A stretch of 64,000 nucleotides of DNA from Yuukianura sp. NJ FZ-2021 (GCA_046563655.1 CM102287.1:1-64000); one strand, 5' to 3'; shown: positions 15,445 to 38,688, counted from the first letter of the stretch. Numbers and translations are program-made. Notes: a model not told the origin generated them from the letters alone.

Positions 15445-15655
15445 TGTGCCGGTAGGATGCTGGGTGACCTCTGACCTAACGGTGCTGGATGATGATGATG
15501 ATGGAATGAGTGGCCGTAGAGAGACAGACAGAGCAGATGATGATAGAAGCAGAGCTTTATTCAGACTGAGTGAATGAATGGAATGAATGTATGTGCAGTA
15601 GCCTATGCTTAGCCTATGAGGGGTGAGATGGGTGCTGTGTATGGGGTGTGCTACA
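15445..15655 (-). mobile_element. Solo-LTR-like insert, copy 2
   Basis: Same 211-bp sequence, same monomer position, GTTT TSD. Confidence 0.75.
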
Positions 15656-16640: not shown

Positions 16641-16897
16641 AGTTAGTTATAAGTGTTTATCAATAGAAAATAGGTCAAGCCCCCCCTCCCCACATCCCCA
16701 GCCCCTGTCCATTCATCCCGGTCATGGGTGACGAAGTGCAACAGAGAAGAAAAAAAAAAAAATAAATAAATAAAAATACATTGTAAATTATTAAATTAAA
16801 TTTATTACTTTTTAAAATTAACCATTTTTAATTGTCTATAATTTATTTAAAAAAAAAAAAATAAAAAAAATATACAATTCCCGAGATTCGAACCCGC
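16641..16897 (+). repeat. Left terminal inverted repeat (near-perfect ~110 bp, degenerate to ~257 bp)
   Basis: Reverse complement of the right end through ...GACGAAGTGCAACAGAGAAGAAAAA; patchy matches continue through TTTTTAATTGTCTAT to CCGAGATTCGAAC. Confidence 0.93.
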
Positions 16898-16956
16898 ATT
16901 TTTTTTTCTCAGGTTTAATTTGAACTGGTGGCTCATACCAATGAACCACATTGGCG
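16870..16956 (-). promoter_or_regulatory. tRNA-like Pol III type-2 promoter element (A box + B box), pointing toward the left end
   Basis: Minus strand reads TGGTTCATTGGTATGAGC ... GCGGGTTCGAATCTCGG followed by T runs; there is no canonical anticodon arm. Confidence 0.45.
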
Positions 16957-17233
16957 TAGCTTACAAATCATAAGAAAAGAATAGCATGACATACAATTAC
17001 TTCATTTACAGCAAAAGTAAAAAAGTACAAGTGATATTCTCTTGATGGCGCTGGGGATGTATTTTTAGTTGCACGGGGATGAAATTCAACTGAGTTTGTT
17101 TCTTCTAAACTTTCGGGGTGAAAAAAATGTTCTGTTTTTAATTCGTCAGCTGAGTTTGTTTCTGTCTAAACTTGACGTGCAACAAAAAGCAACGCAAAAA
17201 TCAAACATTTCCGAGATTTACATTGAAAAAAAA

Positions 17234-19040: not shown

Positions 19041-19842
19041 TCAAAGGGAGCTTTCACGGGCGGTAAAAGTTTCCAGTTGAAGCGCAGCTGCACCCCTCTG
19101 GAGTTGGTCACTCAGAGGTCTTGGCCTGCGGCAACGCTTCAATACACGAACGGCCATATATGAACCGATGATCACCAGTAGCCCCACTAGAATTAAAATG
19201 TGAGTCATGAGTACAAATTTGTTTTGAAATGATTACCTAAAACTTACCAATAATCAGAATCAACAAAAGAGTCAAGTCCAAACCTCCCTCTTGAACTGCC
19301 GGCTGCGGGATTACCGTGGTTGTTGGTTCGGTTGTCGGTGAGGTGGGTGGTGTCGTAGGGGCCTCAGTTGTGGTGATGTTCCTAATATTCCTGCAGGCCT
19401 CCCAGTTTGGCGGGTTTACGTTAAAAACGTATCCTCGGGCTGTCCCCTCCAGTCCACAAAACGTTTTACGTCGCCCCTCGTTGAACTCGAAAAATGAGCA
19501 CGCCTTAAGGACACACTCCACGCATTTCCACAATGCATTACACTTTGCTAAAAATGAATTATAAATTAAAATATGCAAATTGAAATTTTACAAATTAAAA
19601 ATCTTTTACTTACACATAATTGCAACTTCTTTGACTTTAGAGTTCTTGGAGTACGAAATACAGACTGATGAGCAATCTCATGCAAAATTTATTATTAGAG
19701 CTAAAATGAGTTCTCTTAAGTTGATGAACTAGTAATTGATCTGGATTTGAAACATCTCATACGATCAAATAGCAAGGATAATAAAAACTCCAGCGTCTAG
19801 ACAATTCCTTTCAGATGAGTTTATTCGAAGTTACCAAACCAT
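19041..19842 (-). CDS. Membrane protein 1: Cys-rich (PSI-like) domain, Thr/Pro mucin-like stalk, TM helix, tail ending ESSL; 5' end uncertain
   Basis: Introns 19548-19613 and 19187-19247 give ...KCNALWKCVECVLKACSF...TTTEAPTTPPTSPTTEPTTT...LTLLLILIIVGLLVIIGSYMAV-RVLKRCRR...TARESSL*. A signal-peptide-like exon (TLEFLLSLLF) lies near 19763-19796. Confidence 0.65.
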
Positions 19843-19845
19843 TTG

Positions 19846-22800
19846 TCATCCGCCTAACTTATTTTTCAAATCATAGTCAATAATAGATTCGATTCGCTTG
19901 TCACCAAATGGAAGGGAAATTGTGTTGGACACAAAAAATCTTGACGCGTTAATGCTTGATGTTAGGGATGCTCGGCTACTTGTGATCATCAGCATCTGGT
20001 CATCCAAAATTTTCACCTGAGAAACTTTGACTTTTTTCAGGGCTTCTCCATGCTCCACGACACGTTTGAAATCTGCATGCCTAAGTTCCTTGGCCTGTTT
20101 TTTTGGAATTCCACCGGCTTTCAGAATGTCGGATTCTCCAAACGCAGAGTCAATTTCCATTGAATATTGAGAACAGGAAGTAGAGTAAAATTCTTTGATC
20201 CCTTCAGCTTGAATCTTCAAGAGACCCGGGATTCCTGCCCGAGAAGCATCATAGAGTTCGGACGTCGGCTGTAGATTGGAAAAGTCGAAGCGATTCGAAA
20301 GTCGTTTCAGTCCAGCAACGTATTCGGCTCTGCTACAGTGGATCTCGGCCACAATACTGTCTGTATGAGTCATCACATGATGGCACCTGTCTCCAAACTC
20401 ACGTTTCAATCCGTCATAATAGTGTGAGTACAGCATAATTTTTGCATTTGAAAGTATAGCGAGTCCAATCATGCGCAGATTGTAATCTGTGATTTCCCCC
20501 TTGGAAAAGTCAAATAGCGCCGTATCTTCGTCCAAAATCTCGAACGACTTGAAAGTTGCCTTGGCTAGTTCTGCTTTCGCTTCTACCGAAGATCGGATGG
20601 CTTTTGACCGCATGTAATCTGAATTGTTTTTTAACATTTGTCCATAGAGCGAGTTGTTTAAAAGCTTCCGAAGTTGCTTTTGGAGGGGAAACTTTGCTTG
20701 ATTTCTTGCAATGACATTACTAGCAGCAAAATTTGCGAAAATTGGAGACTCCCTAAATCGAACTGCTGAATAGTACTTGGTAGGCATGGCGCCATGATCA
20801 ATCATGAACTTGAGGTATTTCCCATAGTAGACTTGTCGTTGTTTTTTGTAGAGGGTCAGCAACACTCGTTCCTGTTCAATTTTTGTTTTTTCTCTGAAAC
20901 TTTCTTGTTGGAATGGAGATAGCTCTTGAGTAGAAACCTTAAGTCGCTGTTGTGGGAAAGGAAAGTCTGAGAGAAAGTTTTTCACTTCCTCACTTTGATA
21001 TTCAAGGTCGACTTCAAAGAGGTAACCCCAACCGTCATCAAAATCTGGTTTGTTGAAATCAAATTTTATAATCTCCTCCGCGGTGAGTTTTTTGTAGCCT
21101 CCGCACGGTAGGTTACCCAAGAAGCACTTACTGTAGCACGAGTTAATGTCAGCATAAAAAATTATTTTTTGCGGAAGGTTATGGTCATAGTTGGAGAGCT
21201 GTTCATTGTTGGCTATAGACTTTAACTTTGTGACTTGAATGACAGGCCCATAGATTCCTTTCGTGATGAGTTTTGAAATTTCTTCATCCGTGACGGCTTG
21301 AATTTCACATTTCTCCATTAGGAACGCGGCTTCCCTTGAAAATGAAGAAATGCTCCAAAAAGAAGCCAAATCCAAATGAAACTCTTTCCAATATTCGTTT
21401 CGAATCGCTTGGAAAACGTCTGCGGTAAGAGCAGTGACACTATTTAGCTTGTGGCGGACTATGTTTTCCAGTGAAAGTTGTTTCCATGAATCGGGAACGT
21501 GGAATTCACTTGAACATTCTAGACTCTTGTAGGCAACTGATTTGTTTTCGAAAAAATCATCAACGGAAGAAAACTCAGGAAAAATCTCGTCTACTGCACT
21601 GTGTGTAGGGTCAGGAGAAAGTTGATTACCGAAAATTTGCTGGAAAATTGGAAATCCAATTCCGGACATCTTTAACTCTTCCACAAGTTCAGCGAGCGGC
21701 GAGTCTGGACGAAAATTTTGAAAGTCTATAAATTTGAGTCCAAAGTGAAGGTCATAGTTTTGCTTGCAAATAGTTTTTCTCAAGTCCAAACCAATTGTGT
21801 TTCCTTCTTTTCTTCGAATTGGGGTAGCAATTCCGTGTTCATCTTTTAGGCATTTTAGCAGAAGATTAAACTCATTCTTCTCACAAAATGCAATCGCTGT
21901 GATACGGTTCTTTGGTTTTATTTCCAAGTTGCAGTTTGTGCAACAGGTCTGCATCTTCTCCCCTGTGAAATGATCATGGTGATAAGCTCTCAGCACTAAA
22001 TCGTGGTTAAATTGCTTTCCACAAATTTCACAGTTTGTTGCTTTTATAAAAAGCCCTTCCTGTTCCTCAGTCATAGGGAGCATCTTGTTTGTGAATTTAA
22101 TTTCGTCGAGCTTCATTTTCGCCATTTCCATTGCAGTTTTAAAAAAAATGTCCACACAATCTTTTCCAATGTAAGAGTGCCGGTCTATGTGTCCCGTTTC
22201 GCATACACTCAGTAGACTGAAGCCAACTGGAATTTTTTGAGTAACACTGATACATTCTTGTCCTATGGTCATCGGAGTTTGTACAGAGACGTAGAAGAAC
22301 TTGTAGAAAAAAATGTAAGGAGCTTTCAGGAGGGCATCAAACTTTCGAAATTTCACAATATCATTCCTAGGCACTTTTACTTTTACAGAGTTTTCACCGC
22401 AAGTATGGTTTACGGAAGACCAAGTCCTAGAATCAAAACGTTTTTGACAAACAGGACAAAATTGATGCCGGAAATGATTATGTTTTCCGAGGAGTGCCGA
22501 AATGTCCCGAATGCAAACAAAGTGATGTTCTTCGCGTTCCGGATGCTTGATTAGTAGGAGATTGACATGATTCGCTCTTTCAGTTTGTGGTGCCCTCCAT
22601 AGAACAATTTCTGGCCCCTGATTTCCGTACACGGTGATGCTAAGGTCTGGGAATTTCTCTTCGACCAAGTCAATGTCCAAAAGAGAAACGTCCGGGTGAG
22701 GGAGAAAGCTCAAATCCATTCTCTCCAAGAAGGCTTCATAACTTGCTGTTTTCTCCAAAATTGCTCTCTCAACTTTAGACTTTTGATGATCTTTGAGCCC

Positions 22801-23711
22801 AAGACAGTGACGCTTCATTCTTCCCAGCTCCAAAATTTCATCTTCATATAGTGCACATAGCACGCTCAATTGGAAGCAGTTGGAATTGGTATTTATCGAC
22901 AAAAGTCCACGTCTGCGAGCCAATTCCTTTGGAATGGGAATGTAACCCCGCCCCCGAACAACTGGATTCCATTGACCGACACCAATGTGGAGAGAACGTA
23001 GCCGCAGAATCTGCCAATTGCTTCCGTTTTCTAGGTATAAGTTGAGGGCGTTGATGATGTATACACAAGAGTTTGTTACCACCCTTGAAATGAAATCGGG
23101 ATGAGAGAGAGGCATGAAGGGAGCTCCGATGGCGTCTCCGAGGTGAATGACATTGTGTGTGACCTCAATCATGTCAGCAATCAAAGTAAAGTTGACTTTG
23201 ACTCCACTGTACTGCCCGATCACTGATTTCAGTAACTTTCTAATAGGAAAGTCGAGGTTTTCAAAAACAGAAAGTACTTGACATTCGGTGGGTGGTTCAA
23301 CGGGTGCAGAAAATAACTTCAAAGTCCCCTTAAGAGCATGGCGGATTTCTTTGAAAGGACGGATATCCACCATAGCTAGGTCATCGGTTGGTCTACTACC
23401 CATGCCTCTCTGAGGACAGATTGGACGGTGAAGAGGAGCCTCGTCAAAGTACCCTCCACAAGAATTACAGCTATGTACCTGCATCAAAAGTGGAATTTTC
23501 ACATCTTTCCTCATGCTTGTGCTAAGTGTAACGTCTTACAGTTTCCACGTGGATGGCCATGGCCTTGTAGGTCGTGCATTTGAAAGTGCAAAGTAACGTA
23601 GGGCTCTGATATCCGCAACTAAACTGCAAATAAAAATTTTTGTGAAACAACAATAATAAGACGGCTTAGAATTTTTTTTACCTCGGCTGCCCGTTTATTC
23701 AGAAAACTCAT
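19846..23711 (-). CDS. pPolB: Protein-primed family B DNA polymerase with N-terminal zinc finger, TP/vOTU-like region and endonuclease VII-like insert
   Basis: 1222-aa ORF with YADINSCY, KLLNNSLYG and THTDS; GSNW...YIPIP...NSNCF...HF N-terminal block; CEIC...HHDHFTGE...CTNCN. Probable 5' exons via introns 23624-23681 and 23479-23539 complete a C2H2 finger (C..C..HVET|VH). Confidence 0.93.
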
Positions 23712-23757
23712 TTTATTAAATTATTAAACAATTTTTTCCAATTAGCTAGCTTCAGAC

Positions 23758-24429
23758 TCAGACTTCGGACTGACGGGGGGATCGACGAAGGGCGACGTTA
23801 AATACACTGCCGTATGTCCCGCGCGATTGGCTACCATGACATTGACCTCCCAAGCTCCACCCCAAAACGTTTGCCACGACAGCAGCAAAGGTCATGCATG
23901 ACAAGGCTGTGGATGAACAACACGATTAATTGGGGACCCATCTAAAAGGAATACGACGTCTTACCCAGAATAGTCCGTAAAATCGGAAGTTGGGAGGGTG
24001 CTTCAAATTTTTGTTGCTTTTTGCAGCCGGTCATTGCTCTCAATAGGTTTGAAATATCTTTCAGTGCCGTTCCGTTGCTGATGTTATCAGCAAACAAAGT
24101 TCCATAAACGATTCCATCCGTGTCTTGCTGATGCGAATCGCACTTGGCCGTGACATTTGTGCTGCCCATTATGAGGGTTCCTGGGAGGTTCCGCGTCATG
24201 TCATTTGTGCAAAAAAAGTTTTGAACCGAATTGAAATGCCATCCTTTGATGAACACATGACCGCCTGAGATGCAACTCCTGCAGCGTTCTTGGAGACTTT
24301 TGTCTTCTCCAGTTTTCAAAAAGAAAGGAATCACTCACCTTCTAAAATGAAGGAAATAGTAGCTTACTTACCTTGACACGATGACGCGGTGATTAGAAAG
24401 CACAACAGGACAAGATTCGAGAGAGCCAT
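23758..24429 (-). CDS. Membrane protein 2: signal peptide, Cys-containing glycosylated ectodomain, TM helix, tail ending QSEV
   Basis: MALSNLVLLCFLITASSCQ | intron ~24308-24371 | ORF body (CRSC; sequons NVT, NIS, NGT) | intron 23907-23964 | ILRTILALSCMTFAAVVANVLGWSL...RRSPRQSEV*. Confidence 0.68.
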
Positions 24430-24522
24430 TACACTACTTGTCGACTCGAATAGAGTAAAATGAATACTGAAGCGTTTGTCAGGCAGTTGCTGAATTTTTA
24501 TGTTTTATTTACATTTGAAAAA

Positions 24523-25082
24523 TTAGTTTTGCCAATCACATAAAGAATAGCATGTCTGAGATGACCCTGAGTGACCCCTTTTCGTACAGATGCCTAAACT
24601 ACTATAAAAATCAAGTACAATTTTTTCGTTTTTGTTTAAATTTTTAGGACTAAATATACGTAAAGAACTACACAAATCTTTTCCGCTGCTCAACTCTTGA
24701 AAGACTTTTAAGCAGAACATGCCGCACGTTGCACTGTCATCCTTTTGTAGTTTTTTAGTGTTCCATTCCGAGATTGTAGTGCATGGGCCGTAAGGAAGAG
24801 ATAGGTTGTAATCGCTAGGCAATTTCCCAAAACTGTCAAAAAAAACCAACCGGCCTTGCTCCAAGTGCGCCCAGAGAACCCAATGGATTCCTAAATTAAA
24901 ACAAAAAATAAATCTCTTGCGTTTCCATATTTTTTTTACCTCAAGCATTTACCTGGAGAAGAAGTTAAGCCGGTATTTTGTATACAACAGAATGGAGGGC
25001 GTGGGTTTAGAAGGCTAATTCCATCATTAGAACTAACAAAAGTTCGAATTTTCGGGTCAGAGCACTCTTTTATACACGCCAT
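24523..25082 (-). CDS. Adenain-like (adenovirus C5/Ulp1-fold) maturation cysteine protease, 2 exons
   Basis: IQNT...G|IHWV...FFDSFG...LQ..DSATCGMFC gives the H-D-Q-C catalytic set; intron 24891-24952. Confidence 0.9.
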
Positions 25083-25110
25083 CGCTTCCTCCAGTTCCGC
25101 CCGTTCATCC

Positions 25111-26412
25111 TCAAGTTTTAAGAACTTGCGCGTTTCTGTTTTTGTCAATTGTTAATACGTTTTGAAAAGTTCCCAGCACAATCAACTCGACTGGCTCGTT
25201 CAGGGCTTCACCAAAGACTGCAGTTACACGGACGGGTCCTTCGCGAGCAGGAAGGAGGTCATTGTTGGATACAGCAGCTTCAGAAAGTTGGAAAAGGTAG
25301 ACGGCGTTGCCAAGTTTGAAATTCTCGCGGGAAATTCCGTTTCCAAAAGAACCGAGTGTATCAAATAGAGCCACGAATGGTTCCATGTACAGGTTTGCAG
25401 CGTAATTACAGACAAGTTCTCTGTAAAATGGAACAAATTCTTCGGTTCTGACGCTGATTGAAGTTATGCCAAAGTCGGCAAAATTCTGTGCGCTATTCTT
25501 GTAGTTTCCTCGAAACGCTTTTGATTTAACCAAGGCAATTGCAACAATCGTAGGCATCCTGCGAAGAAAAAGTCGATCCGAGGTGAAGCTGACAGTTCCG
25601 GAAGCGATTGTGTTTCTTTCAATTTCAATTTCTCGGTAACTGTAGATTGCTTTTTTTCCATGGTTGAATAGTTGCTGATGGTTAGAGTAGATTCGAGGGC
25701 TAATTGTATGTGCCTTGAGATGAAAGACGGCATCTTCAATGGAATACGTATACTTTGTGTCGGTGGGCGTGTCCAAGCAGAAAGGGGCTGAGTTTTTAGT
25801 CAGTGTAAGTTCAATTTTTAGTCCCGAAGGAATCCATCGTTGGAGTTCACACAATGAACATGAAATTTTTCCAAACAAATCAAAGGTCTTTGACCCGGCA
25901 CACATTGCTTTTCGTTTCGTATATCCAGTGTTTGTTGCGTCAAAGACATCCTGTTTGGAATCTGGGTAGTAGGCAATTGATGACAGGAGGCTCGCTTTGA
26001 GTTCTTGACTGTAGCCCAGGAGATGCGACAGAATTCCTCTGTAACTGTAACTTTGTGGGTACTCACTCATTTGGACGCCACCTACCGTGACCGTGCAGGA
26101 GTCAAAGATTGTGTAGAACATCATGTTGCTAATAGCAACGTCGGCAGTATCCGGAAGCGTTTCTCCACTTGCAGTGAGAACTTTACATTTTAGGTATAGG
26201 TATGAAGATGAGAAATCCAAGTAAACGTTTGGCGGAAATTGAAACTGCCCAATGTTGAATGTGATTTGAGGATTTTCTTTTACAGTATTCACAGGAATAA
26301 TCTTGATGAACTCTGTTTGCTGCACACTAATGTCAGTCGGGGGAACTGAAAATAGATCGAGTTGGGAAACGTAGTTGGGCTTTGTACCCGGAAGCGTGTT
26401 TACTGAAGCCAT
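25111..26412 (-). CDS. Major capsid protein (double jelly-roll, Polinton PY-type), 433 aa, intronless
   Basis: N-terminal SQLDLFSVPPTDISV, YLDFSSSYLYLKCKV, YSYRG and ...IVLGTFQNVLTIDKNR patterns typical of Polinton MCP; size and position next to the protease. Confidence 0.88.
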   Translation of the reverse strand: MASVNTLPGTKPNYVSQLDLFSVPPTDISVQQTEFIKIIPVNTVKENPQITFNIGQFQFPPNVYLDFSSSYLYLKCKVLTASGETLPDTADVAISNMMFYTIFDSCTVTVGGVQMSEYPQSYSYRGILSHLLGYSQELKASLLSSIAYYPDSKQDVFDATNTGYTKRKAMCAGSKTFDLFGKISCSLCELQRWIPSGLKIELTLTKNSAPFCLDTPTDTKYTYSIEDAVFHLKAHTISPRIYSNHQQLFNHGKKAIYSYREIEIERNTIASGTVSFTSDRLFLRRMPTIVAIALVKSKAFRGNYKNSAQNFADFGITSISVRTEEFVPFYRELVCNYAANLYMEPFVALFDTLGSFGNGISRENFKLGNAVYLFQLSEAAVSNNDLLPAREGPVRVTAVFGEALNEPVELIVLGTFQNVLTIDKNRNAQVLKT

Positions 26413-26473
26413 CTTGAGACTGACTACCGACTAACGCAGGACAGAAGACTGAGGAATCTTGTAAATGGTTCTT

Positions 26474-26830
26474 CTATTTAAACGATTTTGGCTTAGCTTG
26501 TTTTGTTGGTCCACAGCCGATCTTTTTCTTTTTAGGAGTTTTCTTTTTAGAAGCAGAAGTTTCCACCGCGGAGACTTTCTTTTGTGGTGATTTTCCTTTT
26601 CTTTTAGCAGCTCCCGTCTTTTTGCGACCTTTGGATTTTTTTCTTCCTTCTCCTGTCATTTCTGAAGCACCGTTCTTTTTACCCTTTTTAGCCTTTTTCA
26701 CACTCTGAAATGGAATTGAATTTGGTAAAACTACCGGGGTCAATGCCCCATACCCAACCTGACGAGTCTTTTCTCCGTCCATTCTTTTTAAAAGCTTACA
26801 ACTTTCACCTTCACACACAACTTCAAGCAT
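26474..26830 (-). CDS. Lys-rich basic protein, putative DNA-condensing core protein
   Basis: Highly basic; xxGxG motifs QVGYG, MTGEG, KIGCG resemble adenain cleavage sites; lies between minor and major capsid genes. Confidence 0.6.
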   Translation of the reverse strand: MLEVVCEGESCKLLKRMDGEKTRQVGYGALTPVVLPNSIPFQSVKKAKKGKKNGASEMTGEGRKKSKGRKKTGAAKRKGKSPQKKVSAVETSASKKKTPKKKKIGCGPTKQAKPKSFK

Positions 26831-26896
26831 GTGGCCTGTGGATCCGACGAAAGTCAAATGACGACTAACTAATGGAGCAGATTATTTATATTGGTT

Positions 26897-27997
26897 TCAC
26901 AAAGTTTTATTTTGAAAATGAAGTACGACCGCAGAATATAAATCGTTAGCTTGAGGGATTGGTTCCATATTTTCAAAAACGAGATCGATTCCAATTTCAC
27001 TAATTTCCCTCCGGTCCATGTCAACAGGAAAGTATAGCAATGGCCGTGGGGTTTCGTGTACAATTCTAACAACTTCTTCTTTTTTCACATCTCGCCTTGG
27101 TAAAATGCTCATATGCCGAACTGCCTTGGATTTGAATTCCTGTGGTTTAACAGCATCGCAGAGCACAATCACATTGTTGTGATGTATATCCAGGTCAATG
27201 TTGGCGATTGTCGGGGATGAAGTGTTGCTGTAGCTGAACCAACATGGAGTTTTGAGGCCAAAAGTTTTTTCTAGAAATTCCGAGAGACGAACACTATAGC
27301 CTCTTCCGGAGACACCGTTGACGCTGAGCTTGCTTTCGTCGTAGGAAAATGTAATTCCCAACTGTTTCAAAGCAACGTTGATTTCACTAACTATGCCTTC
27401 GACCGTCTTGTCTTTGGGTTCATTGACCTTTACGGTAGAACTGACTTCACGAAAAACAGTAAACTTTAGCGGCTCTGAAATGTCAATTGCGTCCAACGCT
27501 GCTTGGCTTGGAGACGACGGGGCATCGGTTTCACCTTGGCCAAACACATTTTTTGTAAATCCGAGAGCACGCGCATAGACTTCTGGAATCTTCACGTCGT
27601 AGCCAGTGTCATTGTTGCGAAATATTAAAAAGTCCTTTCCTTCTTCTACTTCCAATAGGAATGTCAGCTTGTTGTTGAATATTGCAAAATTCGTATTGCA
27701 TTTGTTCATTGTTTCAATATAACTTTCACCTTCGGCTCGAAACACTTCCATGCTCGATTCAAAGCGCTGAACCACGGAAACGACATTGTCGTCGGGTTCA
27801 TGGCCAAAAATCGTATACTTTCCAGTGTCTGGCGTTGCGGGGTACCACAAATTACACACTGCAACTTCTAGCGGGAGATTTTTGTGCAAAGGAATATTGT
27901 CCAAAAGCTTATTTCGAAAAGAACTTGTATTATTAGATGGGAAGAATGAGGGAAATGAAGTAGAACCTAGAGTCACGAAGCGCGAAAACGGGTACAT
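26897..27997 (-). CDS. Minor capsid (penton-like) protein, 366 aa, intronless
   Basis: FVTLGS..FPSNNTSSFRNKL..IPL..EVAVCNLWYP N-terminus and VLCDAVKPQ..YFPV..ISEIGIDL..VVLHF C-terminus match the Polinton minor capsid pattern. Confidence 0.82.
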   Translation of the reverse strand: MYPFSRFVTLGSTSFPSFFPSNNTSSFRNKLLDNIPLHKNLPLEVAVCNLWYPATPDTGKYTIFGHEPDDNVVSVVQRFESSMEVFRAEGESYIETMNKCNTNFAIFNNKLTFLLEVEEGKDFLIFRNNDTGYDVKIPEVYARALGFTKNVFGQGETDAPSSPSQAALDAIDISEPLKFTVFREVSSTVKVNEPKDKTVEGIVSEINVALKQLGITFSYDESKLSVNGVSGRGYSVRLSEFLEKTFGLKTPCWFSYSNTSSPTIANIDLDIHHNNVIVLCDAVKPQEFKSKAVRHMSILPRRDVKKEEVVRIVHETPRPLLYFPVDMDRREISEIGIDLVFENMEPIPQANDLYSAVVLHFQNKTL

Positions 27998-27998
27998 T

Positions 27999-29155
27999 TT
28001 ATGCGGTCACTGGGGTCAGATCTTCGTTTAAGAAACTCCTAAAAAAGAATTGGATGTGGCTTTGTCAACTGGCAAAATCCGTCTAAAATTATTACCTTTA
28101 ATCTCCTCCTTTTTTAGCGTCTCAAGATAGTAAAAGGGAGGCACGGCGCTGATTGCCTTTCTAATCCTATAAAAAAAAAGAAACGCTTGGCATACATTCC
28201 AAAACAGGGCTAATATGCTTCTTTACCTAAAGACTTCCGTAGAGTACGATTGTGACGTTGAAGCTTTTTCAAAAGTTAGCCGCTTTCTAGCGACCCTCAC
28301 AAGCTGACCCACCTGAAGAAAAAGACTGTTTTAATGAGACAAAGTGAATGTTTAACTGTTACCTTGAATTTTGGCTTTTCTGGTTTGGAATTTATTAGTT
28401 TGTCGTAGACGTTTATAAAAACTGTAGCTTTGTTTTTGGGGTCAATAGCCTCCGTGGGAGTCATCTTCAGGGTTGAATGCACCGTTTTATTGTAATTTGA
28501 AACAATATCCGGCCATAGAGTTTTCATTGAAGCCTTTGGATTGGCAAATTGAGCCCGGGTCAAGTTTCTTCTGAACGTTTGAATTACACGTTCTACCTGT
28601 GAAACTTTTCTCGCAGTTCTCGGAGAATAGCTGTGAATGTCATTGGCTTCCAAATATTTCAAAAGGCTTTTATTCTTGAATTCTTTTCCAAAATCGGAAG
28701 CCAAAAAATGCGGGAGATGCTGAGAGAAAAAATGATAAAGTGTAAATGCATTCGAAGAGAGAAAAGGAGACATTTACCCCAGCTTTCTTGAAGACTTTCT
28801 TTATTGCCTCCAAAACTACTCGTGCTGTCTTGTTGACACAGAACTCTGTCCACACAAAGCGGCTAAACAAGTCCATGCAGATGAGAATGAAGCCAATCTT
28901 TTCTTTTTTCGCAGACTTTTTGTCCAACTGCAAAAGGTCAACTCCGAACGTCATATAAGGAAAAAACGTTAATACTGGCCTGGTCCTTGGCTTTCTTTGC
29001 GGCCTGTGCAGAGAATATGCAGGAACTCCGGACAAAGCTTGCTTGACCTTCTCTTTGTCTAAAAAGCCTGATGACTTTAAGAATGACGGAAAACCAGAAA
29101 AGCTTCCAACTGCTTTTTTATTTAAATAGGCTGACTTTATTTGTCTTTCAGACAT
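27999..29155 (-). CDS. int: Retroviral-type (c-integrase) DDE integrase, spliced; last junction uncertain
   Basis: YSLHRP, GVDLL, CMDLFSRF, ASDFGKEF, VERVIQT, YNKTVHSTLKMTP, KFK|VGQLVRV. Introns 28720-28777, 28313-28362, 28167-28226 and probably 28039-28095. Confidence 0.92.
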
Positions 29156-29286
29156 GCTAAGAACCTACAAAAGAAATTACACAAGACAGTGTATGACGGC
29201 GACTGCCGTCTGAGTATGACTTTTTACCAAATTTATTTAAAAAACGACCGAATTTTCGAGAATTATTTAAGCTTAAGACTCAGGGG

Positions 29287-29750
29287 TCAGTTGGTATCCA
29301 TAGCGTCTTTGTCGTTCCAGTCCATTGACTTTACCAAGAAGCACGGATTTTCAAAACACTGTGATCCGGTTCGTCCACAGCCCAAGATACACGGTTCGGA
29401 GAGTACCAAGTGACACTTCATGTCCTTCATGAACTCTTCCAAGTCTCCTTCTCGAACATAGGCCGAATGATCCGCTGCGAGTTCATTTATTGTCTTGTCT
29501 TTGTTAATTTCTGCGTCGTAGACGTAACAGTCACGGTGACCCCTACGGTTCCAGCAGTTATGTTTTAGCACAGCACTTCCAAACTGACGTATGATAGGAT
29601 CTACTTCGGCAAGTTCATCCAAAAGTTGAGCCAATGGCTTTTCCTGTCTGTTTGGGCAATCTAGATACAAAAAGAAATTAGGTTCAAAGGTCAAAAACTG
29701 ACAATTTCTAAAATTTTACCCGCCAACGGTGGAGAATCTTTTGTCGGCAT
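29287..29750 (-). CDS. Hypothetical Cys/His-containing protein (~135 aa, 2 exons)
   Basis: MPTKDSPPLA|DCPNRQ... joined by a GT-AG intron ~29661-29719; TATAAA upstream near 29805-29810. Confidence 0.55.
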
Positions 29751-30051
29751 TTTGAAAATGATGGCGCTTACTACGGAATGATGGCTTTTCCAAACTCCTG
29801 TCGCTTTATATACCCTATCGAACTGAGTGGAAACGTTTTGAAAAAATGTTGACTAGAAATTTCCAAAATTTTCAGTCCATTGAAAATTCCGCTCTGTTGA
29901 ACTCAAAAGGCCCTACGGCATACTAAATGCGATTACTCATGCACACAAAAAAAAAGCCAAGGAAATATATTCTTGTGCACTTTCCTCCTTTGTATTCAGT
30001 CGCACTTTCCTCATCCCCTCCTCAAGTCACAAGCAAAATATTCAGAAAGCA

Positions 30052-30930
30052 ATGGAAAACACAGAGCCAGCTAACAACCAGTTTCCTAGCCATGAAGAAT
30101 TGCCAGAAGAAAGAGATTGGACAGAAGTATTCAAAGTGAAAATCAGTCATCCGGACACTGTGGATTGCACTTTAATTACGACAGGCCCTAAGATTTTCAA
30201 AGTACTACGCATTGAACAGCACGGCACGGCAACCACTTTGGATTTCAAAGTGATACCAAAACTCATCGGAAAGCTTTTTCAACTTTATCTTCAGAACGGT
30301 GGGCGAGCGAGCGAGCTGCCGTATGTAACACTTTATCATGAGAGAGGTTCAACTTGCCTTATAATTCGACACAAAGACTCCAAGGAGGTTAGAAGCTGGC
30401 CGCAGAATTCTGAAAACGGTCGTAAAACTGATCCAGACCCAATCCGCTGCCCACAAGGAATGTATCCCGCGCCAACTATCGTGTATCAGACGTCTCAAAT
30501 GGACGGGTTTTGGCCGAGGCAGGCTGAATCTCGTGATAGCAGTACCGATTGGGCACAAGTAGACAAATTGCGCATCAGTCAGCCGGACGCTTGGGATTGT
30601 TCTCTAATTACGGAAGATCTTAAGGTCTCGAAGGTCATCCGCATCGAACAGCACGGCGCGGCAGCCACCGTGGATTTCCAAATGATTCCGAGCCTAATCG
30701 GCAAATTGTTTCAACTCTTTCTTGGAAGCGGCGGGAGAGTAACAGAACTGCCGAGAGTAAAACTTTATCACCAGAAAGGCACTACATACCTCGTGATTCG
30801 GGACAATGACTCTGTGGACAATTGGAACTGGCCAACTGACTTGGAAACGGGTCCTAGGATCACGCCTCTAGGAAAATTAATCGAGTATCAGACATATCGA
30901 ATCGAAGGAGACGAGGTATTCGTGGCATGA
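30052..30930 (+). CDS. Hypothetical 292-aa protein made of two diverged ~100-aa repeats
   Basis: DWTEVFKVKISHPD..RIEQHG..LIGKLFQL..GGR..ELP..LYH vs DWAQVDKLRISQPD..RIEQHG..LIGKLFQL..GGR..ELP..LYH; synonymous divergence between copies supports coding. Confidence 0.85.
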   Translation: MENTEPANNQFPSHEELPEERDWTEVFKVKISHPDTVDCTLITTGPKIFKVLRIEQHGTATTLDFKVIPKLIGKLFQLYLQNGGRASELPYVTLYHERGSTCLIIRHKDSKEVRSWPQNSENGRKTDPDPIRCPQGMYPAPTIVYQTSQMDGFWPRQAESRDSSTDWAQVDKLRISQPDAWDCSLITEDLKVSKVIRIEQHGAAATVDFQMIPSLIGKLFQLFLGSGGRVTELPRVKLYHQKGTTYLVIRDNDSVDNWNWPTDLETGPRITPLGKLIEYQTYRIEGDEVFVA

Positions 30931-31149
30931 TTGGGCAAAAACTGAGCCACAGAGACGCCTCACTAGCGTTAGAAACGTATATTGAATAGCATTACTCCAC
31001 TAGCATTTGCATAAAAGAATTTTGTCTTTGTGAAATTTATTTGAATTCTGGTGAAAAATTTGTATTATTTAAAATTTGATAAAAAACTTTCAATTTTTCC
31101 GAAATCCTTTTTCCAAGCCTTGTTCAGTTTACAGAACACACCAAAAGTT

Positions 31150-31585
31150 GCTCACAAAAAAAAAAGAAAAGAAAGAAATCCATTCATTGCCATGCTCCGT
31201 TGAACTCGAAAATTTGTTACCAAATTGCAAGAAAAAGAAGTGCTCAAGAATCAAAACTCAAAATTTAACAATTTAAATAAATTTAAACTTCATTTCTTTT
31301 GTCTTAGAATTCTTTTTAAAAGGTTAAAAAGTTTTCAAAAAAAAACAACACATTTTTTTTAAAATTCAATTTAAAAAAAAAAGAAAAGAAAGAAATCCAT
31401 TCATTGTCATGCTCCGTTGAACTCAAAAATTTGTTACCAAATTACAAGAAAAAGAAGTGCTCAATAATCAAAACTCAAAAGTTAATAATTTAACTAAATT
31501 TAAATTTCATTTCTTTTGGCTTAGATTTTTTTTTAAAATGTCAAAAATTTTTCAAAGAAAAAACTGATTTTTTTGTTAAAAATTC
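31150..31585. repeat. Two diverged ~218-bp AT-rich direct repeats between convergent genes
   Basis: AAGAAAAGAAAGAAATCCATTCATTG(C/T)CATGCTCCGTTGAACTC...AATCAAAACTCAAAA at ~31163 and ~31381. Confidence 0.85.
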
Positions 31586-31789
31586 AACTAATCTTCCCTA
31601 GCCTGAATTTTTTAAAAACAAAGCAAAATGCAGTTGGTTCCAGTTCGCTGCACTCCACATACTACTCTGCCAAATTGTAAATACCAAAAAAATGCAAAAG
31701 AAATAAATAAATAAAAAAGAAAGAAACACAAGACATTTCAAAATCCATTTTTTATTTCTTTGTCTTTTTTTTAGCCTAACCGGAAGAAG

Positions 31790-32198
31790 TTAACGACGTA
31801 TCCTTTGTCGTAGATCCTCGTCACTTGCATTGTATATAACTGAAAAGACAAAAAAAATTACTATTTTAAATTGAGTTCGGTTTAAATAATTAATCAATTG
31901 TTGGCTTACTCTTCTCGATCAGCTTCATCTGCGCAAACCGGTGCATCTCGCGGTAGTGCAGAAATTCCTCCATTGCACCCGGCTCCTCTGGCTTCAAATA
32001 GTAGTTTGGAATCTCGCGGCGTCTCGCCCAGAAGTGGTGCCAAGCGGCACGTAAACAATCGTAGCGGAAAAAGGCCTCCAATGTTAGGCGCCGACGCCAG
32101 TTCCCGCCAGTCCTCTGGTCATCACAGATGACCTCCTGAGGGCACGAGCAGCCGTCCCAATCGTCGTGTTCACAAGGCCGCGACACAATACCTCCCAT
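31790..32198 (-). CDS. Small hypothetical protein with N-myristoylation-like start (MGGIVS), probably 2 exons
   Basis: ORF body 31890-32198; donor GTAAGC near 31909 and acceptor TTTCAG near 31840 give ...IEKIIYNASDEDLRQRIRR*; TATATAAA upstream near 32262-32269. Confidence 0.6.
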
Positions 32199-32352
32199 GG
32201 TAATGAAATGCAGTTTAAGGAGAAGAAAGTAATCTGACAAAAGACGGCCAATTCTCCAGAGTTTATATACTACCAGAAAATCATCTCAACTCCAATTAGA
32301 ACTGAGAAAAACACTAGCTCACAGCTAGAGATATTTATTCGAGCATAAATTC

Positions 32353-33271
32353 TCATAAATCTTCAGGGTCAACCTTAGCAACAATGTTTTGCATTGTTTT
32401 TACAAAACCGTCAATATCTCCCCGACAAAACGTTAACTTCGGCCCAAAATAGCCGTCAAACTTCGAGTTGTCGCTCGGGGAATTGAGATAGAAAAAATAT
32501 CTGTCCCTGCGGACGTTGATGAAGCGCATTCTAAAGCGCATAGTTTCGCTATACCAAGTATCGTCATGAGTCCAGAATGAGAGCTCTTTGGGCTCAATCA
32601 GGGTTCCCGGCTCGTACTTGAATAAGGGAGCTCCTGCCTTGACAGACTCGTCAATCTCGTCCAAGGTAGATTTTATTTGTTCCAGGATGACACCAACTTC
32701 TCGAAACAAGATTCCAAGGATCGTTGGGCTTGCGTTCGAGTTGAGCTTCTGGATGTAAATCTTCATGGCTGCAAAAGAAAAAAAATTTTGTGAAAAATTA
32801 CAATTGAAGCTTATTCATATTTTAGGTCAAACGTACTCTGAGAATACGGGTCAAATCCGAGCCGAGCGTAGAAAGTAGTTGATGTTCCGAACTTCTCCAC
32901 AAGTCCAGATTCAGAAAAGAATGCTTGGGCATTCTTCGGTCCAAGCTCCAGTTGCTTTGCTTTCGTGACGTAGCTCATGGGAATTCCGGAGAAAGCCTCC
33001 GTAAAAACAAACGGAGTCTGCGGCGGTCTTCCTTCCACGACGTCTTGACCCGGGTTAGCTACACCGGTCAACAAGTCAATCGCCCTCCGACTTCTTACAA
33101 GTGAAGTGGCTTCATCAACGTTATCAAAGTCCAAACGTCTTTTAAACGCTCCGACCTTTTGCGTTGGGGCTTCTGAAATTATTTTTAAAATGATTAAATT
33201 TTAAAAAAAATAGAAGAAAAAGTATTTTTAAAAAAACTGCAGTTCAAAAATTGTTACTCACCGCTTCCCAT
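32353..33271 (-). CDS. Hypothetical spliced protein with KRRLDF motif; possible PC4/PUR-like ssDNA-binding repeats
   Basis: MGS|EAPTQKVGAFKRRLDF...FDPYSQ|TMKIYIQ... joins ORFs 33254-33487, 32811-33134 and 32353-32766 by two GT-AG introns. The start may be at 33487. The fold guess is weak. Confidence 0.6.
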
Positions 33272-33858
33272 TGTCGAATTTCTTTGATATTGGCCCTTTT
33301 GAAATTGTAAAAGTTGAGTACTGATGACGGGATCACAAATACTGTCCCTTTTAAGGGAAAATTTCAACCCGATTGACCCCTGAGTTTCCCGAAGCAACCA
33401 ATCCGATGTCGTTTCAATTTCCCCCAGTTCCTCCCCCGACGCTTCTCCGCTCCGCTGACGATGAAATTTTCGACTCCGTTGACCCATGACTTTGGTGAAA
33501 GCAAACCGTCAACGTCTTAGCGTCACCGGAGATATGCTTCAATGCCGTTCTGGTGCAGGTCAGTTGTGGCCTGCACCGGATGTTCTAGAAGTTGAACTTT
33601 TGTTTGGACCCAAGCCGTTCCGGGTGACCGATTTAGGCGCGCGTCACGGCTCGCTAATTCCCGGCCACTGTCCTCGACGTTGTTCTAGGCTACAGTTCAA
33701 GAACTCCAGCCAAAACTGATTTCCAGTCTGATAAGCTCCGTTCATCGTCTTTTGCCCCTGTTTGACCTAGGGGGCAGTCCAACGGAAAAAAAAACATCGA
33801 TATAAAACACGGACTGAAAATCGTTTTTAGGGCCGAAAAGTTTGTTAAACCCCTCAGT

Positions 33859-34263
33859 ATGAATTCATCAACACATCATTGCTGTAAATGTGTAAAAATA
33901 TTTAGTCCAATCAGAATCAAGGTAATCAAAGACAGGCTTACTAAATCGCGCTGCCGAGACATTGAGAAAATTGTTCGGGAAGACTACTCACAGTGCACGA
34001 ACTGTGACATTGTGTGGGACGGATTTGCGCAACACGTCTGCCCGTCGACAAAGCCTTCGAAGCCCTTGAGTATTGTGGAGATTTTGTGCAGTATTCAGCG
34101 TTGGAGCAGCAAAGAGCCATTTACGTTTGGCGGATTTAGATTCAAAATTGGAAGAGTCACCGCATTGGACGCCGCTTACATTCAAGACGAAATTTTGAAA
34201 AACTTTAACGTTTTTTACTCTTCACGTCTGCCCGTAAAGTCCATCAAGCGTTGCAGACTGTAA
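33859..34263 (+). CDS. Hypothetical 134-aa protein with a Cys/His zinc-binding-like motif
   Basis: CTNCDIVWDGFAQHVC motif; TATAAA at ~33801 and TCAGT immediately before the ATG; abuts the helicase start. Confidence 0.6.
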   Translation: MNSSTHHCCKCVKIFSPIRIKVIKDRLTKSRCRDIEKIVREDYSQCTNCDIVWDGFAQHVCPSTKPSKPLSIVEILCSIQRWSSKEPFTFGGFRFKIGRVTALDAAYIQDEILKNFNVFYSSRLPVKSIKRCRL

Positions 34264-34265
34264 AG

Positions 34266-36176
34266 ATGGATAAAAGTTCACTCAAACGAAAGCTGGAGAA
34301 AGGAGAAAGCGGAGGAAACGTTGTACGCAAGTTGGTTCCGAGTAATCCATTAACGTTTTTAGAATACTGCAAAACTCAGCCCGTCAACAGAGTATTTCCG
34401 GTCGTTGAACTAGAGCAGCTCAATTCCAAGCAGCGTCAAACTGCAAAACTGGTGACTGAAGCCCTCTCTGCTCGTAACCAGGAATTCATTCTGTGCCACG
34501 GCGCGGCTGGGACAGGCAAGCCAACAGATATTTCTTTAGGAATTTCATCTGAAATTATTTTTTTTTTGAAATTTAGGAAAAAGCTTCATAATACACTATT
34601 TAAGAGGCTATTTTGAAAAAAAAAAGATTCGTTTCCGTGTCTTTGCATTTACTGGTGCAGCTGCATTCAACGCGGGAGGAATAACTGTTCATAGCGGCCT
34701 CTCATTAAGTCTAGGTCATCGAAAGCATGACCCGGAAAAATATGTCGAATTTCCAAGGGAGAGACTGAAGGGAGTACGACTTTTAATAATTGACGAAGTT
34801 TTTATGCTCGGGGTTGGTCTCCTGGGATACATGGAGCGAAGACTTCGGGCAATTTTCAGGACACAAGAACCATTTGGAGGTCTAACCGTGTTGGCCATGG
34901 GTGACCTGGCACAGTAAGCTACACTTTTAAATGTGGAAACCTCATAATAATGATGTTTGATGTTTAAGGCTAAGTCCAGTGGCGGATAGACCATTATACT
35001 ACAAGTCTGCGCATGCCGAAGGCTTGTGCTTGGATGGGATCAAGGCGTACGCGCATTTTAACAAATGCATAATACTGACAGAAATTATGCGGCAGGACGA
35101 GTCTCAAGCCAAGTTGAAAGAAATTTTGTCGCGCGTACGTTGCGGAAAACTAGAAGAACAAGACATTGAAGCGCTGCAATTGAGGTCTTTGGAACAACTT
35201 TCTTCAGTCCTGACTGCGGAAGAGCTTTCACTTTTCCTCTCCGCTCCTGTTCTCTTTGCAGAAAATCACAACGTGAATAGTTACAATGAGTAAGTCTCTA
35301 TAAGATACTGAATTTATGCATACTATTAAAAATGTAAAAAATAGAAAACGAATTTCGGAGCTGGGCGTTGACATTACGGAGGTGGACGCCATCGACATGC
35401 GAGATGAGACAAAGACTGGCGACAAATTGAAGCTAGCGGTTGGAGCCCGCTGCATGCTAACCAAGAATCTTTTTGTCGCAGCAGGTATACCATAGTAACC
35501 ATACTAATTTTAAAAAGACTAATTTCTGATTTTTCTAACAGGACTTTACAACGGAGCACTTGTCACAGTCACTCAGATTTCAACCGAAGTAGACGAAAAC
35601 GGAGTTCCAAGTTTCGTTTTCGTCCGTCCCGACACATATTTTGGCGTTCCATACCCACTCAGGAGAGATATTCCTATAGTTCCGCTCGTGATGCCATACT
35701 ATGACAAGTATGCGGGAAGAACTTACCAAAGAAAGTTATTCCCATTGCAACTGGCTTGGGGAATGACATGTCACAAGGCACAGGTGAATTACCTCAAGAC
35801 TATGCTAAAAACATTTGATCATTTGTTTTTTCTTTATAGGGCAAAACTTGCAAACGGGTAGTGGTGGGGAATCCAGCACCCGGTGACACATCAACAATGT
35901 TTACTAGTCAGGCGCCTCAGTTGGTTTATGTAGCAATGAGTAAGAAACAATTTTTTGCATTTTTTTTTCATATTTTTCAAGCTTAATAATGAAATTTAAA
36001 ATTTAGGTCGTGTCACAACTCTGGACGGATTAATGTTCCAGCACCCATTCAGTCCAAATCTGGTCGTGGGACATAGGAGCCTAGCTATTCGGCAATGGCA
36101 GGAGGAATTACAGCGCCTAGAAGCCATGGAAGCCAACACCAACACGAATTTCAATTTAATTTTAGATTTAAAATAA
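34266..36176 (+). CDS. pif1: PIF1-family SF1B DNA helicase, 7 exons
   Basis: GAAGTG|KS, AFTGAAAFNAGGITVHS, LLIIDEVFM, PFGG..GDLAQ|LSPV, LTEIMRQ, FPLQLAWGMTCHKAQ|G, YVAMS|RV. Introns approx. 34516-34576 (GC-AG), 34914-34968, 35290-35344, 35485-35541, 35783-35840, 35939-36006. Confidence 0.92.
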
Positions 36177-36273
36177 ATAGTTTTATGGTAGCATTGTGAA
36201 TTTTGGCTTTACTAGTAAAAGTATTCATAGATTTCCATTCAACTGTATTCAGTTTGCAAGAATTTTTAACAAA

Positions 36274-36357
36274 GTACAAGTGGTTCAGTGGTATGAGCGT
36301 GTTCCGAAAATTTTTGTTGCCATGGGTTCAAATCTCGTGTGGTTCAACTTTTTTTTT
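36274..36357 (+). promoter_or_regulatory. Second tRNA-like Pol III A/B-box element
   Basis: TGGTTCAGTGGTATGAGC (D-arm-like GTTC/GAGC stem) ... ATGGG-TTCAAAT-CTCGT (T-arm-like), then a T9 run; an internal T5 is also present. Confidence 0.45.
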
Positions 36358-36655
36358 ATTCCAAATACTATGTTTTCTTATTGTTGAAACAATTCGTTGT
36401 TTAAAAAAAATTATTTTTTATTTTTTTGAAAATTTTTAATATAATTGAAAAGATAAAACAGCATAATTAACTTAAAAACTAAATTCAAGTTAAAATTTGC
36501 CCATATGTACTCATCTCAGGGGAGTGGGTACAAAGGTGAATGCAGGTGTGCATGTGCAGCCGGTTGTAAACAAAAGCACGTGAAAGTGAAAGTTGTAAAA
36601 ACTCCCACTTCCTCGTGCTTCTGTTTTGTGGTGTGTTGCCGGAGGATTCCAAGAA

Positions 36656-38094
36656 ATGGTAAGTTTTTATAATTAAACTTAACCTAATTAAACTAAATTA
36701 AACTAAAAACTAAAAATTATTTATTAAAATTTGTTTTTAGGAAAATTTTAGAATGTTGTTGGGCCACTTGGCAGTCGTTGTCCTGTTTGGAGCCACCGGG
36801 TTTGGGGATCCCCCCAAATGTGACCTGAACTGGCCCTGTGTTCAGTGTCTGGGGGAGCGATGCGCTTGGTCGAGGCGTGAAGACGGGGTGGGGGTATGCC
36901 ACCCCATTGGGGAGACCCCCAATGGGCGCTACATCTTCTCGTGGCTGCCCCCTGACACCCTCAAGTGTCCCCAGCCTGACCAGGCACGAGAAGGGGTCCC
37001 CGCGGGGGAGTGGGAGACTGCTGCAATCGTTTTGGCAGCGTGGTTGGCACGTAAGTTTTTTTTTATAAAATTGGAACGATACAGAGTAAGGTTTGTTGAC
37101 TTTGATTTTCTTTAACAGGTTGAGTAATACCTCATGTTTTTTTAATTTTGCAAAAATAGTGTCTTTCATTTCATGATATCGTAGTCATAACAATACAGCC
37201 GATTTTTTTTTTAAATTTTGCATACGAATTGGTACCATTTTTTTTTGTATTTGTACAAAAATTTGCACCAATTTCCGTTTTTTTTCATTTTTTTTTTGTC
37301 AACGAGGAAGGTAGTACTCAACCTGTTAAAGAAAATACAGACAAATCACTAATTCATGATTTGTCTGTTTCAGTAGTGACAACATGTGTCGTGGGTGCAG
37401 GGATTCGGTGGTTGATTGGGTGGGTTCGGGAGTGGAGGGAGCCCCACCAACACCGGGGATTTAGGCCCCGCCCACCAACACCACATCCAGCACCGCCTGC
37501 TGCTCCACGACGTGCCACCACTGCACCACCACAGATGCCCCACCGTCCAGCTCCACCAACTCCTGCAGCAGCAGCGACTGGCTTGGCCCCACCACCGTGG
37601 GGTGAGTACCCCAATCTGACCAGCCCCACGATGGTGCAGCATCTGGAGCCGTTACGGCAGTCGGAGAGGCTGGCTGCCAAGCGGCAGCATCCGGGATATT
37701 CCCGGCCAAGGCAAGGTTTGTTTTTGTTTTTATTAAGTAGCGAAAGCTACTTTATTCAGAATCTGCAATGCAATTTTATTTGCAAGTAAACAGAATGAGA
37801 GTGGAGAGTAGAGTGGAGAGTGCGGACGTAGAAGTAAGCACCTCTCTCCATTGTCATTCTGTTTGCTTGCAAAAAAAAACTGCATTGCAGATTTTTGCAA
37901 CTTTTTTTTAATCAAATTTTGTTTTTATTTCAGGTACCGGTACTAGGTACCAAGCACCCAGCACCAGCACCAATCCATTTCTTCGCGGGAACATGGTTTC
38001 GTTCCCGTTTGCGGTTACAAATCCGCAGTATTCAGCACTGGATCTAAATCCTACGGGATTAGTTTCCAGTGCTGAAGAAACGTCATTTGTTTAA
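36656..38094 (+). CDS. Membrane protein 3: signal peptide, Cys-rich (PSI-like) domain, TM helix, Pro-rich tail with YPNL, NPF, NPQY and terminal TSFV (4 exons)
   Basis: Introns 36659-36740, 37051-37373 and 37716-37933 join M|ENFRMLLGHLAVVVLFGATG..KCDLNWPCVQCLGERCAW..AAIVLAAWLA|LVTTCVVGAGIRWLIGWV..PRQ|GTGTRYQAPSTSTNPFLRG..TNPQYSAL..AEETSFV*. Confidence 0.75.
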
Positions 38095-38421: not shown

Positions 38422-38688
38422 GCGAGTTCGAATCTCGGAAATATTTTTTTTTATGTTTTTTTTTAAATAAATAAATCATAGACAATTAAAAATAATTAAT
38501 TTAAAATCAATAATACATTTCTTTTTTTTAATTTATATTTTTAGAAACTAATTACAATTTTATACTTTTTATTTTTCTTCTCTGTTGCACTTCGTCACCC
38601 ACCACTGACCGGGGTGAATGGACAGGGGCTGGGGATGTGGGGAGGGGGGCTTGACCTATTTTCTATTGATAAACACTTATAACTAACT
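38422..38688 (-). repeat. Right terminal inverted repeat
   Basis: Reverse complement of 16641-16897 with a few mismatches/indels in the outer 110 bp. Confidence 0.93.

Follow-up and report, generated by a model that had tools for sequence, protein, structure and literature searches.

Three putative single-span membrane proteins with PDZ-type C-terminal endings encoded in a predicted Polinton from Yuukianura sp.

Three spliced genes and their predicted proteins

By which genes might a Polinton act on the surface of the cell that carries it? The question is raised by a 64,000-nucleotide stretch of DNA from Yuukianura sp. NJ FZ-2021 (GCA_046563655.1 CM102287.1:1-64000; hereafter the window), which contains a 22,048-bp insert (16641-38688) that we interpret as a complete Polinton/Maverick from a lineage with sparse sampling. 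The original prediction for this locus held that three genes in the insert, visible only after splicing, encode undescribed type I membrane proteins, each with a signal peptide, a Cys-rich ectodomain, a single membrane span and a cytoplasmic tail, and each ending in a class I PDZ-binding motif. We refer to these genes as g1, g2 and g3. Our analysis of the sequence supports the three as a genuine, undescribed accessory set; that they serve to hijack PDZ proteins is a plausible hypothesis. The roles first suggested for them, namely cell-to-cell spread, envelopment, superinfection exclusion or immune modulation, are hypotheses too. The locus bears on whether Polintons act as true viruses and on the way in which they engage the surface of the host cell. 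Proteins encoded by the element for that surface, with tails that dock on scaffolds, would be concrete handles on these matters, among them a six-Cys domain without known relative, and should the models fail, the locus would still be a clean case of orphan cargo genes in an intact Polinton.

Three spliced open reading frames (ORFs) do exist at the places first proposed. On the minus strand, the ectodomain exon of g1 (19248-19547) carries the six-Cys domain, one N-x-T sequon, a Thr/Pro-rich stalk and the first half of the membrane span. A 61-nt phase-1 intron (GTAAGT...TTCTAG) separates it from the last exon (19041-19186), which completes this strongly hydrophobic span (hydropathy, KD, 2.76) and continues into a polybasic juxtamembrane stretch, a tail of 35 amino acids and the stop; the C-terminal four codons (19044-19055) read ESSL. 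The g2 model, also on the minus strand, comprises 182 amino acids in three exons: a signal-peptide exon (24372-24429) that ends in phase 1 at a GTAAGT donor, an ectodomain exon with five Cys and three N-x-S/T sequons (23965-24306) and, after a 58-nt phase-1 intron (GTAAGA...CCACAG), a last exon (23758-23906) with most of the single span (KD 1.95), a 34-residue tail containing YGSV and the stop, its final codons (23761-23772) reading QSEV. On the plus strand, g3 begins in an exon (36741-37050) that holds an ATG at 36753, a signal-like segment, the six-Cys domain and the first half of the span; an optional first ATG (36656-36658), with a GTAAGT donor directly after it, joins this exon in frame across an 82-nt intron reaching to 36740. 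The next exon (37374-37715) supplies the second half of the span (KD 2.26) and a Pro-rich stretch with RxxPxxP and PxxPxR motifs, and the last (37934-38094), behind the region's best polypyrimidine acceptor, encodes NPF, an NPQY overlapping YSAL, and the stop. The g3 model has 266 amino acids from ATG 36753 (266-271 across both ATGs), of which 156 make up the Pro-rich tail that ends in TSFV (38080-38091).

Several features of the DNA agree with these models. The exons of the three genes are 45-64% GC and their introns 14-43%, as in g3, where exon 36741-37050 has 63% GC against 28% in the intron that follows. None of the three membrane spans is complete until a phase-1 splice has joined its two parts, and reading through stops within a few codons. 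An AATAAA lies 41-112 nt past each stop, and the span-splitting introns of g1 and g2 match in size the short introns that we read by eye in the element's helicase gene. The two long introns of g3 (323 and 218 nt) each hold an inverted-repeat insert, which accounts for their length. These inserts (37105-37336 and 37760-37893) resemble small foldback or miniature inverted-repeat transposable element (MITE)-type insertions, one with 28-nt arms that are 96% alike and have 176 nt between them, and the other in the form of a nested hairpin whose arms measure 22-35 nt. Twelve ATG-led hydrophobic starts occur in the element, and only those of g2 and g3 head a sense gene; a scan of the element for hydrophobic starts and spans gave no further convincing membrane-protein gene. 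The reading frames and hydrophobic segments are direct observations, and from them we infer expression and splicing of the genes and the topology and glycosylation of their products.

We called signal peptides by hydropathy and topology by the charges that flank the span. The N-termini of g2 (KD 1.63 over 19 residues and 3.17 over nine) and g3 (1.57 and 2.91) are signal-like by this criterion, each with small residues ahead of the predicted cleavage site. For g1 we found no convincing signal peptide: of 950 enumerated GT/GC-AG models of its 5' end, nine were signal-like by a loose criterion, and all nine share one seven-residue hydrophobic patch and weak donors. The alternative 5' exons, at 19840-19849 and 19763-19796, have weak donors. 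The simplest start (19614-19617) consists of an ATG (19617) plus one base before a GTAAGT donor and a 66-nt intron; it provides no signal peptide, and translation from it leads directly into the Cys domain. It may be that g1 inserts through its span alone, or that its 5' end is damaged. Each protein has one membrane span. The charges on its two sides (-2 ahead and +5 behind in g1, -3 and +1 in g3) favour a tail-inside orientation for these two proteins, and not for g2. As a prediction, the type I description thus holds for two of the three genes, g2 and g3, because the signal peptide of g1 is unsupported; the Cys ectodomain, the single span and the tail of g1 stand as originally predicted.

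A shared C-terminal ending

Under the most parsimonious splicing, the three proteins end as had been proposed, g1 in ESSL, g2 in QSEV and g3 in TSFV, the last depending on the choice of the final intron. All three endings have the class I PDZ-binding form, [S/T]-x-hydrophobic at a free C-terminus, in the models given above. Across the element, endings of the form [ST]-x-[VL] occur in 40 of 1634 ORFs when the minimum length is set to 4 codons, in 9 of 451 when it is 30 and in 5 of 118 when it is 60 (2.0-4.2%), and the wider form [ST]-x-[VLI] in 57, 15 and 7 of the same sets (3.3-5.9%). In 21 related metagenome loci (1.0-5.8 kb each, covering the capsid neighbourhood only), such an ending is carried by 14 of the 369 ORFs that reach 60 codons or more. 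As the background is just 2-6% of ORF ends, three endings out of three are unlikely to arise by chance: the probability is about 1e-5 to 2e-4, and that of at least three among some 20 genes is 0.008-0.04. We read 11 other ORF ends in the element, and [ST]-x-[VL] fits none of them. The tails contain further putative trafficking motifs, YxxPhi in g2 and g3 and both NPxY and NPF in g3.

How firmly the splicing fixes these endings differs among the genes. For g1 and g2 the only workable splice dictates the end, so that a PDZ-type ending remains unlikely by chance for these two. The last exon of g3 is the weakest point of the gene models, with TSFV resting on one of several possible introns. Donors at 37602 (GTGAGT) and 37716 (GTTTGT) are both in frame with the best acceptor, at 37933. 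When all GT/GC donors are paired with all AG acceptors, 166 of 1633 combinations end in a PDZ-type motif.

Relatives, analogues and competing explanations

A comparison of the three proteins with one another revealed a relationship that had not been recognized before: g1 and g3 are paralogues, as judged from their sequences. Their ectodomains match by BLASTP (E 2e-5 over 47 residues), and their Smith-Waterman score of 63 compares with 24.2 +/- 4.7 for shuffled sequences, none of 2000 of which reaches it. All six Cys align, and both genes have a phase-1 intron some 8-10 residues into the membrane span. We considered g2 as a third paralogue and rejected it (BLASTP E 0.086; hhalign probability 0.13; the score was reached by 83 and 1178 of 2000 shuffles), and there is no further paralogue elsewhere in the window. 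The first four Cys of g1 and g3, C-x5-C-x2-C-x4-C followed by an aromatic residue, have a spacing that we take to be PSI-like. The PSI domain itself (presumably Pfam PF01437) was rejected, with no Pfam PSI match at E<=1 and no PDB match at E<=10 for the two-sequence profile. The three genes also differ from the core genes of the element in composition, with 48-60% GC and 51-57% GC at third codon positions (GC3) against 38-43% and 39-43%; this difference, taken with their introns and with exon borders in phase 1, suggests that they were acquired later.

The description of the proteins as undescribed holds as far as our searches reach, through Pfam, PDB sequences, 1.84 billion representative proteins, viral contigs and the literature. 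Pfam returned no family for the seven exon translations save two chance-level rows, with none at E<=1 for the ectodomain exons of g1 and g3, and PDB sequence and profile searches with the exons and the g1/g3 profile gave nothing significant. A word-based protein search found nothing for the g1 exon or the g2 exon. With the g1/g3 profile, a full HMMER search of the 1.84 billion representatives produced three matches at E<=1e-3 and none at 1e-10. We judged the three to be spurious: a bacterial PKD/GEVED protein, a plant-mobile-domain protein and one protein without Pfam family. In the ESM Atlas the best scores, 0.75 for g3 and 0.89 for g2, were to unnamed clusters and lay under the useful range. 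Viral contigs, scanned with four queries (the g1/g3 alignment, g2, the capsid protein and a capsid alignment), gave no match, nor did a first metagenome scan, nor a tblastn search of the 21 related loci with all three proteins (E<=1). Homologues in other Polintons, one of the checks attached to the original prediction, were therefore not found by protein, viral-contig or related-locus searches. Structure prediction, another of those checks, gave no usable fold for the ectodomains: the AlphaFold2 models reached a pLDDT of 50.9 for the six-Cys domain (from a two-row alignment) and 37.1 for the ectodomain of g2.

What, then, might these genes be for? The best explanation, which we consider quite possible without calling it probable, is that they are lineage-specific cargo genes for single-pass surface glycoproteins with adaptor-recruiting tails. 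As accessory genes of an intact, recently inserted Polinton, they would direct each protein into the endoplasmic reticulum, leaving the Cys ectodomain outside and a short, probably disordered tail in the cytosol; g1 and g3 would stem from duplication of one gene. The free C-terminal S-x-V/L could then bind to PDZ scaffolds at the cortex of the host cell, and the upstream YxxPhi, NPxY and NPF signals of g2 and g3 could link the proteins to endocytic adaptors. By such means the element might remodel or label the surface of its cell, perhaps so as to pass from cell to cell or to prevent re-entry. We infer the binding of PDZ scaffolds and adaptors, and the biological role, from motifs in the predicted tails.

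This tail logic would resemble that of Env, the envelope glycoprotein of HTLV-1, whose tail is described as having a YSLI sorting motif and a C-terminal ESSL that binds hDlg (PMC3185783). As a type I viral glycoprotein tail that couples YxxPhi with a class I PDZ-binding end in the cited account, it is the closest working analogy. The ESSL of g1 is identical to that of Env, whereas g2 and g3 instead pair YxxPhi with S-x-V. There is no sequence relation between the two systems, the Polinton ectodomains are about 70-110 residues long and have no fusion machinery, and PDZ binding is predicted for them. A Polinton-encoded counterpart is MFUS-1 (PC1) of nematode Mavericks, reported as an 866-residue gB-like fusogen that has a signal peptide and crosses the membrane once (10.1101/2022.07.12.499685; PMC10748475). 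From this example, Polintons are able to encode surface proteins and may have an envelope. MFUS-1 is a published exception (10.1101/2022.07.12.499685) to the premise of non-enveloped Polintons from which the original prediction had set out; whether envelopment is exclusive to nematode Polintons was described in 2023 as still to be investigated (PMC10748475). MFUS-1 differs in its class III fusogen fold and its size (866 residues against 149-266 here), and the parts of these papers on which we draw report no PDZ-type end for it. We found no ectodomain of the large MFUS-1 type (about 750 residues) in the element, where the sole other long ORF is the polymerase.

Other comparisons are looser. Adintoviruses, animal Polinton-like viruses, are described as having membrane-active accessory proteins, namely PLA2X, GasderminX and a cupiennin-like protein (PMC8502044). 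Genes of this kind resemble g1-g3 in being membrane-related accessory genes; they differ in that their products, as characterized in that source, are membrane-disrupting and virion-associated and do not combine signal peptide, span and tail, and none has a Pfam match here. Our literature searches found no paper that links Polintons with PDZ binding or adintovirus with PDZ. The adenovirus E3 membrane proteins, E4-ORF1 of adenovirus 9 (Ad9) and E6 of human papillomavirus (HPV) are accessory proteins that act on the cell surface or on PDZ scaffolds, and the adenovirus lineage is presumably related to Polintons; of these proteins, neither E4-ORF1 nor E6 is a membrane protein. The likeness to E3 proteins that had been suggested did not extend to sequence, with no Pfam or other sequence match, and is one of function only. 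Small type I proteins with a PSI domain, such as PTTG1IP, consist of a small domain with Cys, a single span and a tail. Presumably they share with g1 and g3 this architecture and the spacing of the first four Cys; the PSI domain has eight Cys against six in g1 and g3, and the profile searches were negative.

A number of results weigh against reading g1-g3 as surface glycoproteins with adaptor-recruiting tails. No homologue was found anywhere we searched, and hence none that could show coding constraint or conservation of the C-termini; nor is there an obvious analogue among the related metagenome loci, which are short and span the capsid neighbourhood only, and in 12 of which we checked the ORFs after the protease. 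With AlphaFold models of low confidence, no fold backs the ectodomains. A credible signal peptide for g1 is not supported by its 5' sequence, and the charges that flank the span of g2 (+2 before, +1 after) do not by themselves favour the proposed orientation. TSFV arises from just two of eight consensus-like pairs for the last intron of g3, and reading through gives a different end. Endings of four residues, like the remaining motifs of the tails, are short and arise by chance, and the common pattern was noticed post hoc, so that the chance figures flatter it somewhat. PDZ scaffolds are, moreover, few outside animals, which weakens the PDZ reading if the host is not an animal.

Other explanations compete with this one. 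If the genes were passengers, taken from host surface receptors or from another organism, then their PDZ-type ends would be a legacy of the donor with no role in the element. We think this rather unlikely. It would account for the spliceosomal introns and for ectodomain exons bounded in phase 1, a pattern typical of shuffled extracellular modules in animals, as well as for GC and GC3 values clearly above those of the core genes; g1 and g3 also lie near the two ends of the element, the usual place for cargo, and exchange of cargo by Mavericks is documented in nematodes, in the account cited here (10.1101/2022.07.12.499685). Against it, no donor-like protein appeared among the 1.84 billion representatives with the g1/g3 profile or in the word-based searches with g1 and g2, and three separate membrane-protein genes with the same ending in one 22-kb element are more than a single capture would bring. 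Capture and later use by the element are, in any case, mutually compatible. It also seems to us rather unlikely that these are real membrane proteins whose shared ending is coincidental or an artefact of the models, and which act through the ectodomain or span, as fusion, membrane-active or virion-associated proteins. The dependence of the g3 end on its splice, already described for both the consensus-like and the full set of pairs, speaks for such a coincidence, and the motif fixes two positions and was picked out afterwards from many possible C-terminal signals. The missing signal peptide of g1 and the polybasic stretch past its span are, in addition, features that we presume to be shared with the reovirus fusion-associated small transmembrane (FAST) proteins. 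Coincidence sits poorly with g1 and g2, whose ends are dictated by the only splices that complete their spans, and with the low background per ORF end and the misfit of all 11 other ends.

Very improbable, in our estimate, is that the frames are non-genes, open merely by accident or left over from the decay of an element now dead. The failure to find homologues, the low-confidence structure models and the lack of a settled model for the 5' end of g1 speak for it. Two independently placed frames nevertheless share a six-Cys domain, a span and an intron position at a similarity far above shuffles, the contrast in composition between exons and introns and the polyadenylation signals back the models, and the remainder of the element is intact. 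The reading of g1-g3 as lineage-specific cargo with adaptor-recruiting tails can, finally, be sharpened into the claim that the element encodes a host-interface module: a duplicated pair of six-Cys glycoproteins plus an unrelated third, whose tails would capture PDZ polarity/junction scaffolds together with endocytic adaptors, in the manner of the glycoprotein tails of retroviruses and rhabdoviruses. In this specific form we regard it as unlikely. If it were true, this would be a Polinton outside the nematode fusogen lineage with an active cell-surface phase, such as envelopment, cell-to-cell transfer or superinfection exclusion, and with an animal host.

The Polinton and its insertion site

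The identification of the insert as a Polinton was borne out by terminal inverted repeats, a 6-bp target-site duplication and long intact ORFs. The boundaries are clear in the sequence: a left repeat of 257 nt (16641-16897, plus strand) and a right repeat of 267 nt (38422-38688, minus strand), an imperfect match with arms 85-97% complementary in blocks, are flanked by identical copies of the hexamer AGTATG (16635-16640 and 38689-38694). On both sides (1-16640 and 38689-64000) lies a 508-bp satellite, and the Polinton sits inside one of its units. As the unit breaks off at its position 287 and restarts at 281 across the insertion, 6 bp were duplicated. The 32 copies of the satellite in 1-17000 are mutually 99-100% alike and of constant composition, and show a strong skew of G over C.

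The core genes are identified with varying confidence, and the polymerase and integrase assignments, which draw on low scores and on motifs that we presume to be diagnostic, are weak. Between g1 downstream and g2 upstream, a 1229-codon ORF (19846-23535, minus strand) is read as a protein-primed DNA polymerase B. It contains a KxxxNSxYG motif and a DxxSxYS-type motif, which we take to be polymerase motifs, and had no polymerase match in Pfam, PDB or PHROGs. At its residues 497-538 is a weak Endonuclease_7/HNH-like zinc-binding insert (Pfam, E 0.0013). An HNH domain is reported as common to the pPolB2 of oomycete and nematode Polintons, as far as the cited source describes them (PMC10748475), and the insert could assign the element to this class and give a clue to its host. 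The integrase-like signal consists of an rve match (E 0.073; 13.8 bits against a cut-off of 32.6) in one of two overlapping pieces at 28297-29164.

Upstream of g2 on the minus strand are a protease-like ORF of Ulp1/adenain type (24523-24948; Peptidase_C48 E 0.0022, under the cut-off) and, next to it, a major-capsid-like ORF of 439 codons (25111-26430). The capsid-like protein has five relatives among 5.8 billion protein clusters, the best at 48% identity, and it also has the 21 related metagenome loci, in 11 of which a protease match (E<=0.1) adjoins the capsid match. A small Lys/Arg-rich ORF without family match (26474-26881, minus strand), which recalls core proteins of the adenovirus type, lies between the capsid-like gene and a 369-codon ORF.

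The element also contains a C2H2 zinc-finger ORF and a spliced gene for a PIF1-type helicase (Pfam E 4e-12). Read by eye, the helicase gene has an apparent 61-nt GC-AG intron (34516-34576, plus strand) with a GCAAGC donor, which splits the Walker A motif, and a second intron of 54 nt with an AAG acceptor near 34914-34967. We recognized no packaging-ATPase gene in a six-frame Walker A scan of 16641-38688, in which intact Walker A strings occurred only in the basic (Lys/Arg-rich) ORF and on the antisense strand of g1; such a gene could be hidden by an intron, as is the Walker A of the helicase. No Rfam family and no tRNA were found. Two further ORFs had no family match: one of 348 codons (29884-30930, plus strand) with two copies of a module of about 90 residues, and one (31890-32285, minus strand) whose first Met is followed by G-G-I-V-S, presumably an N-myristoylation-type start. 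Just upstream in coordinates (31156-31564), 1.9 copies of a 217-bp unit that match at 92% lie in A-rich intergenic sequence midway along the element.

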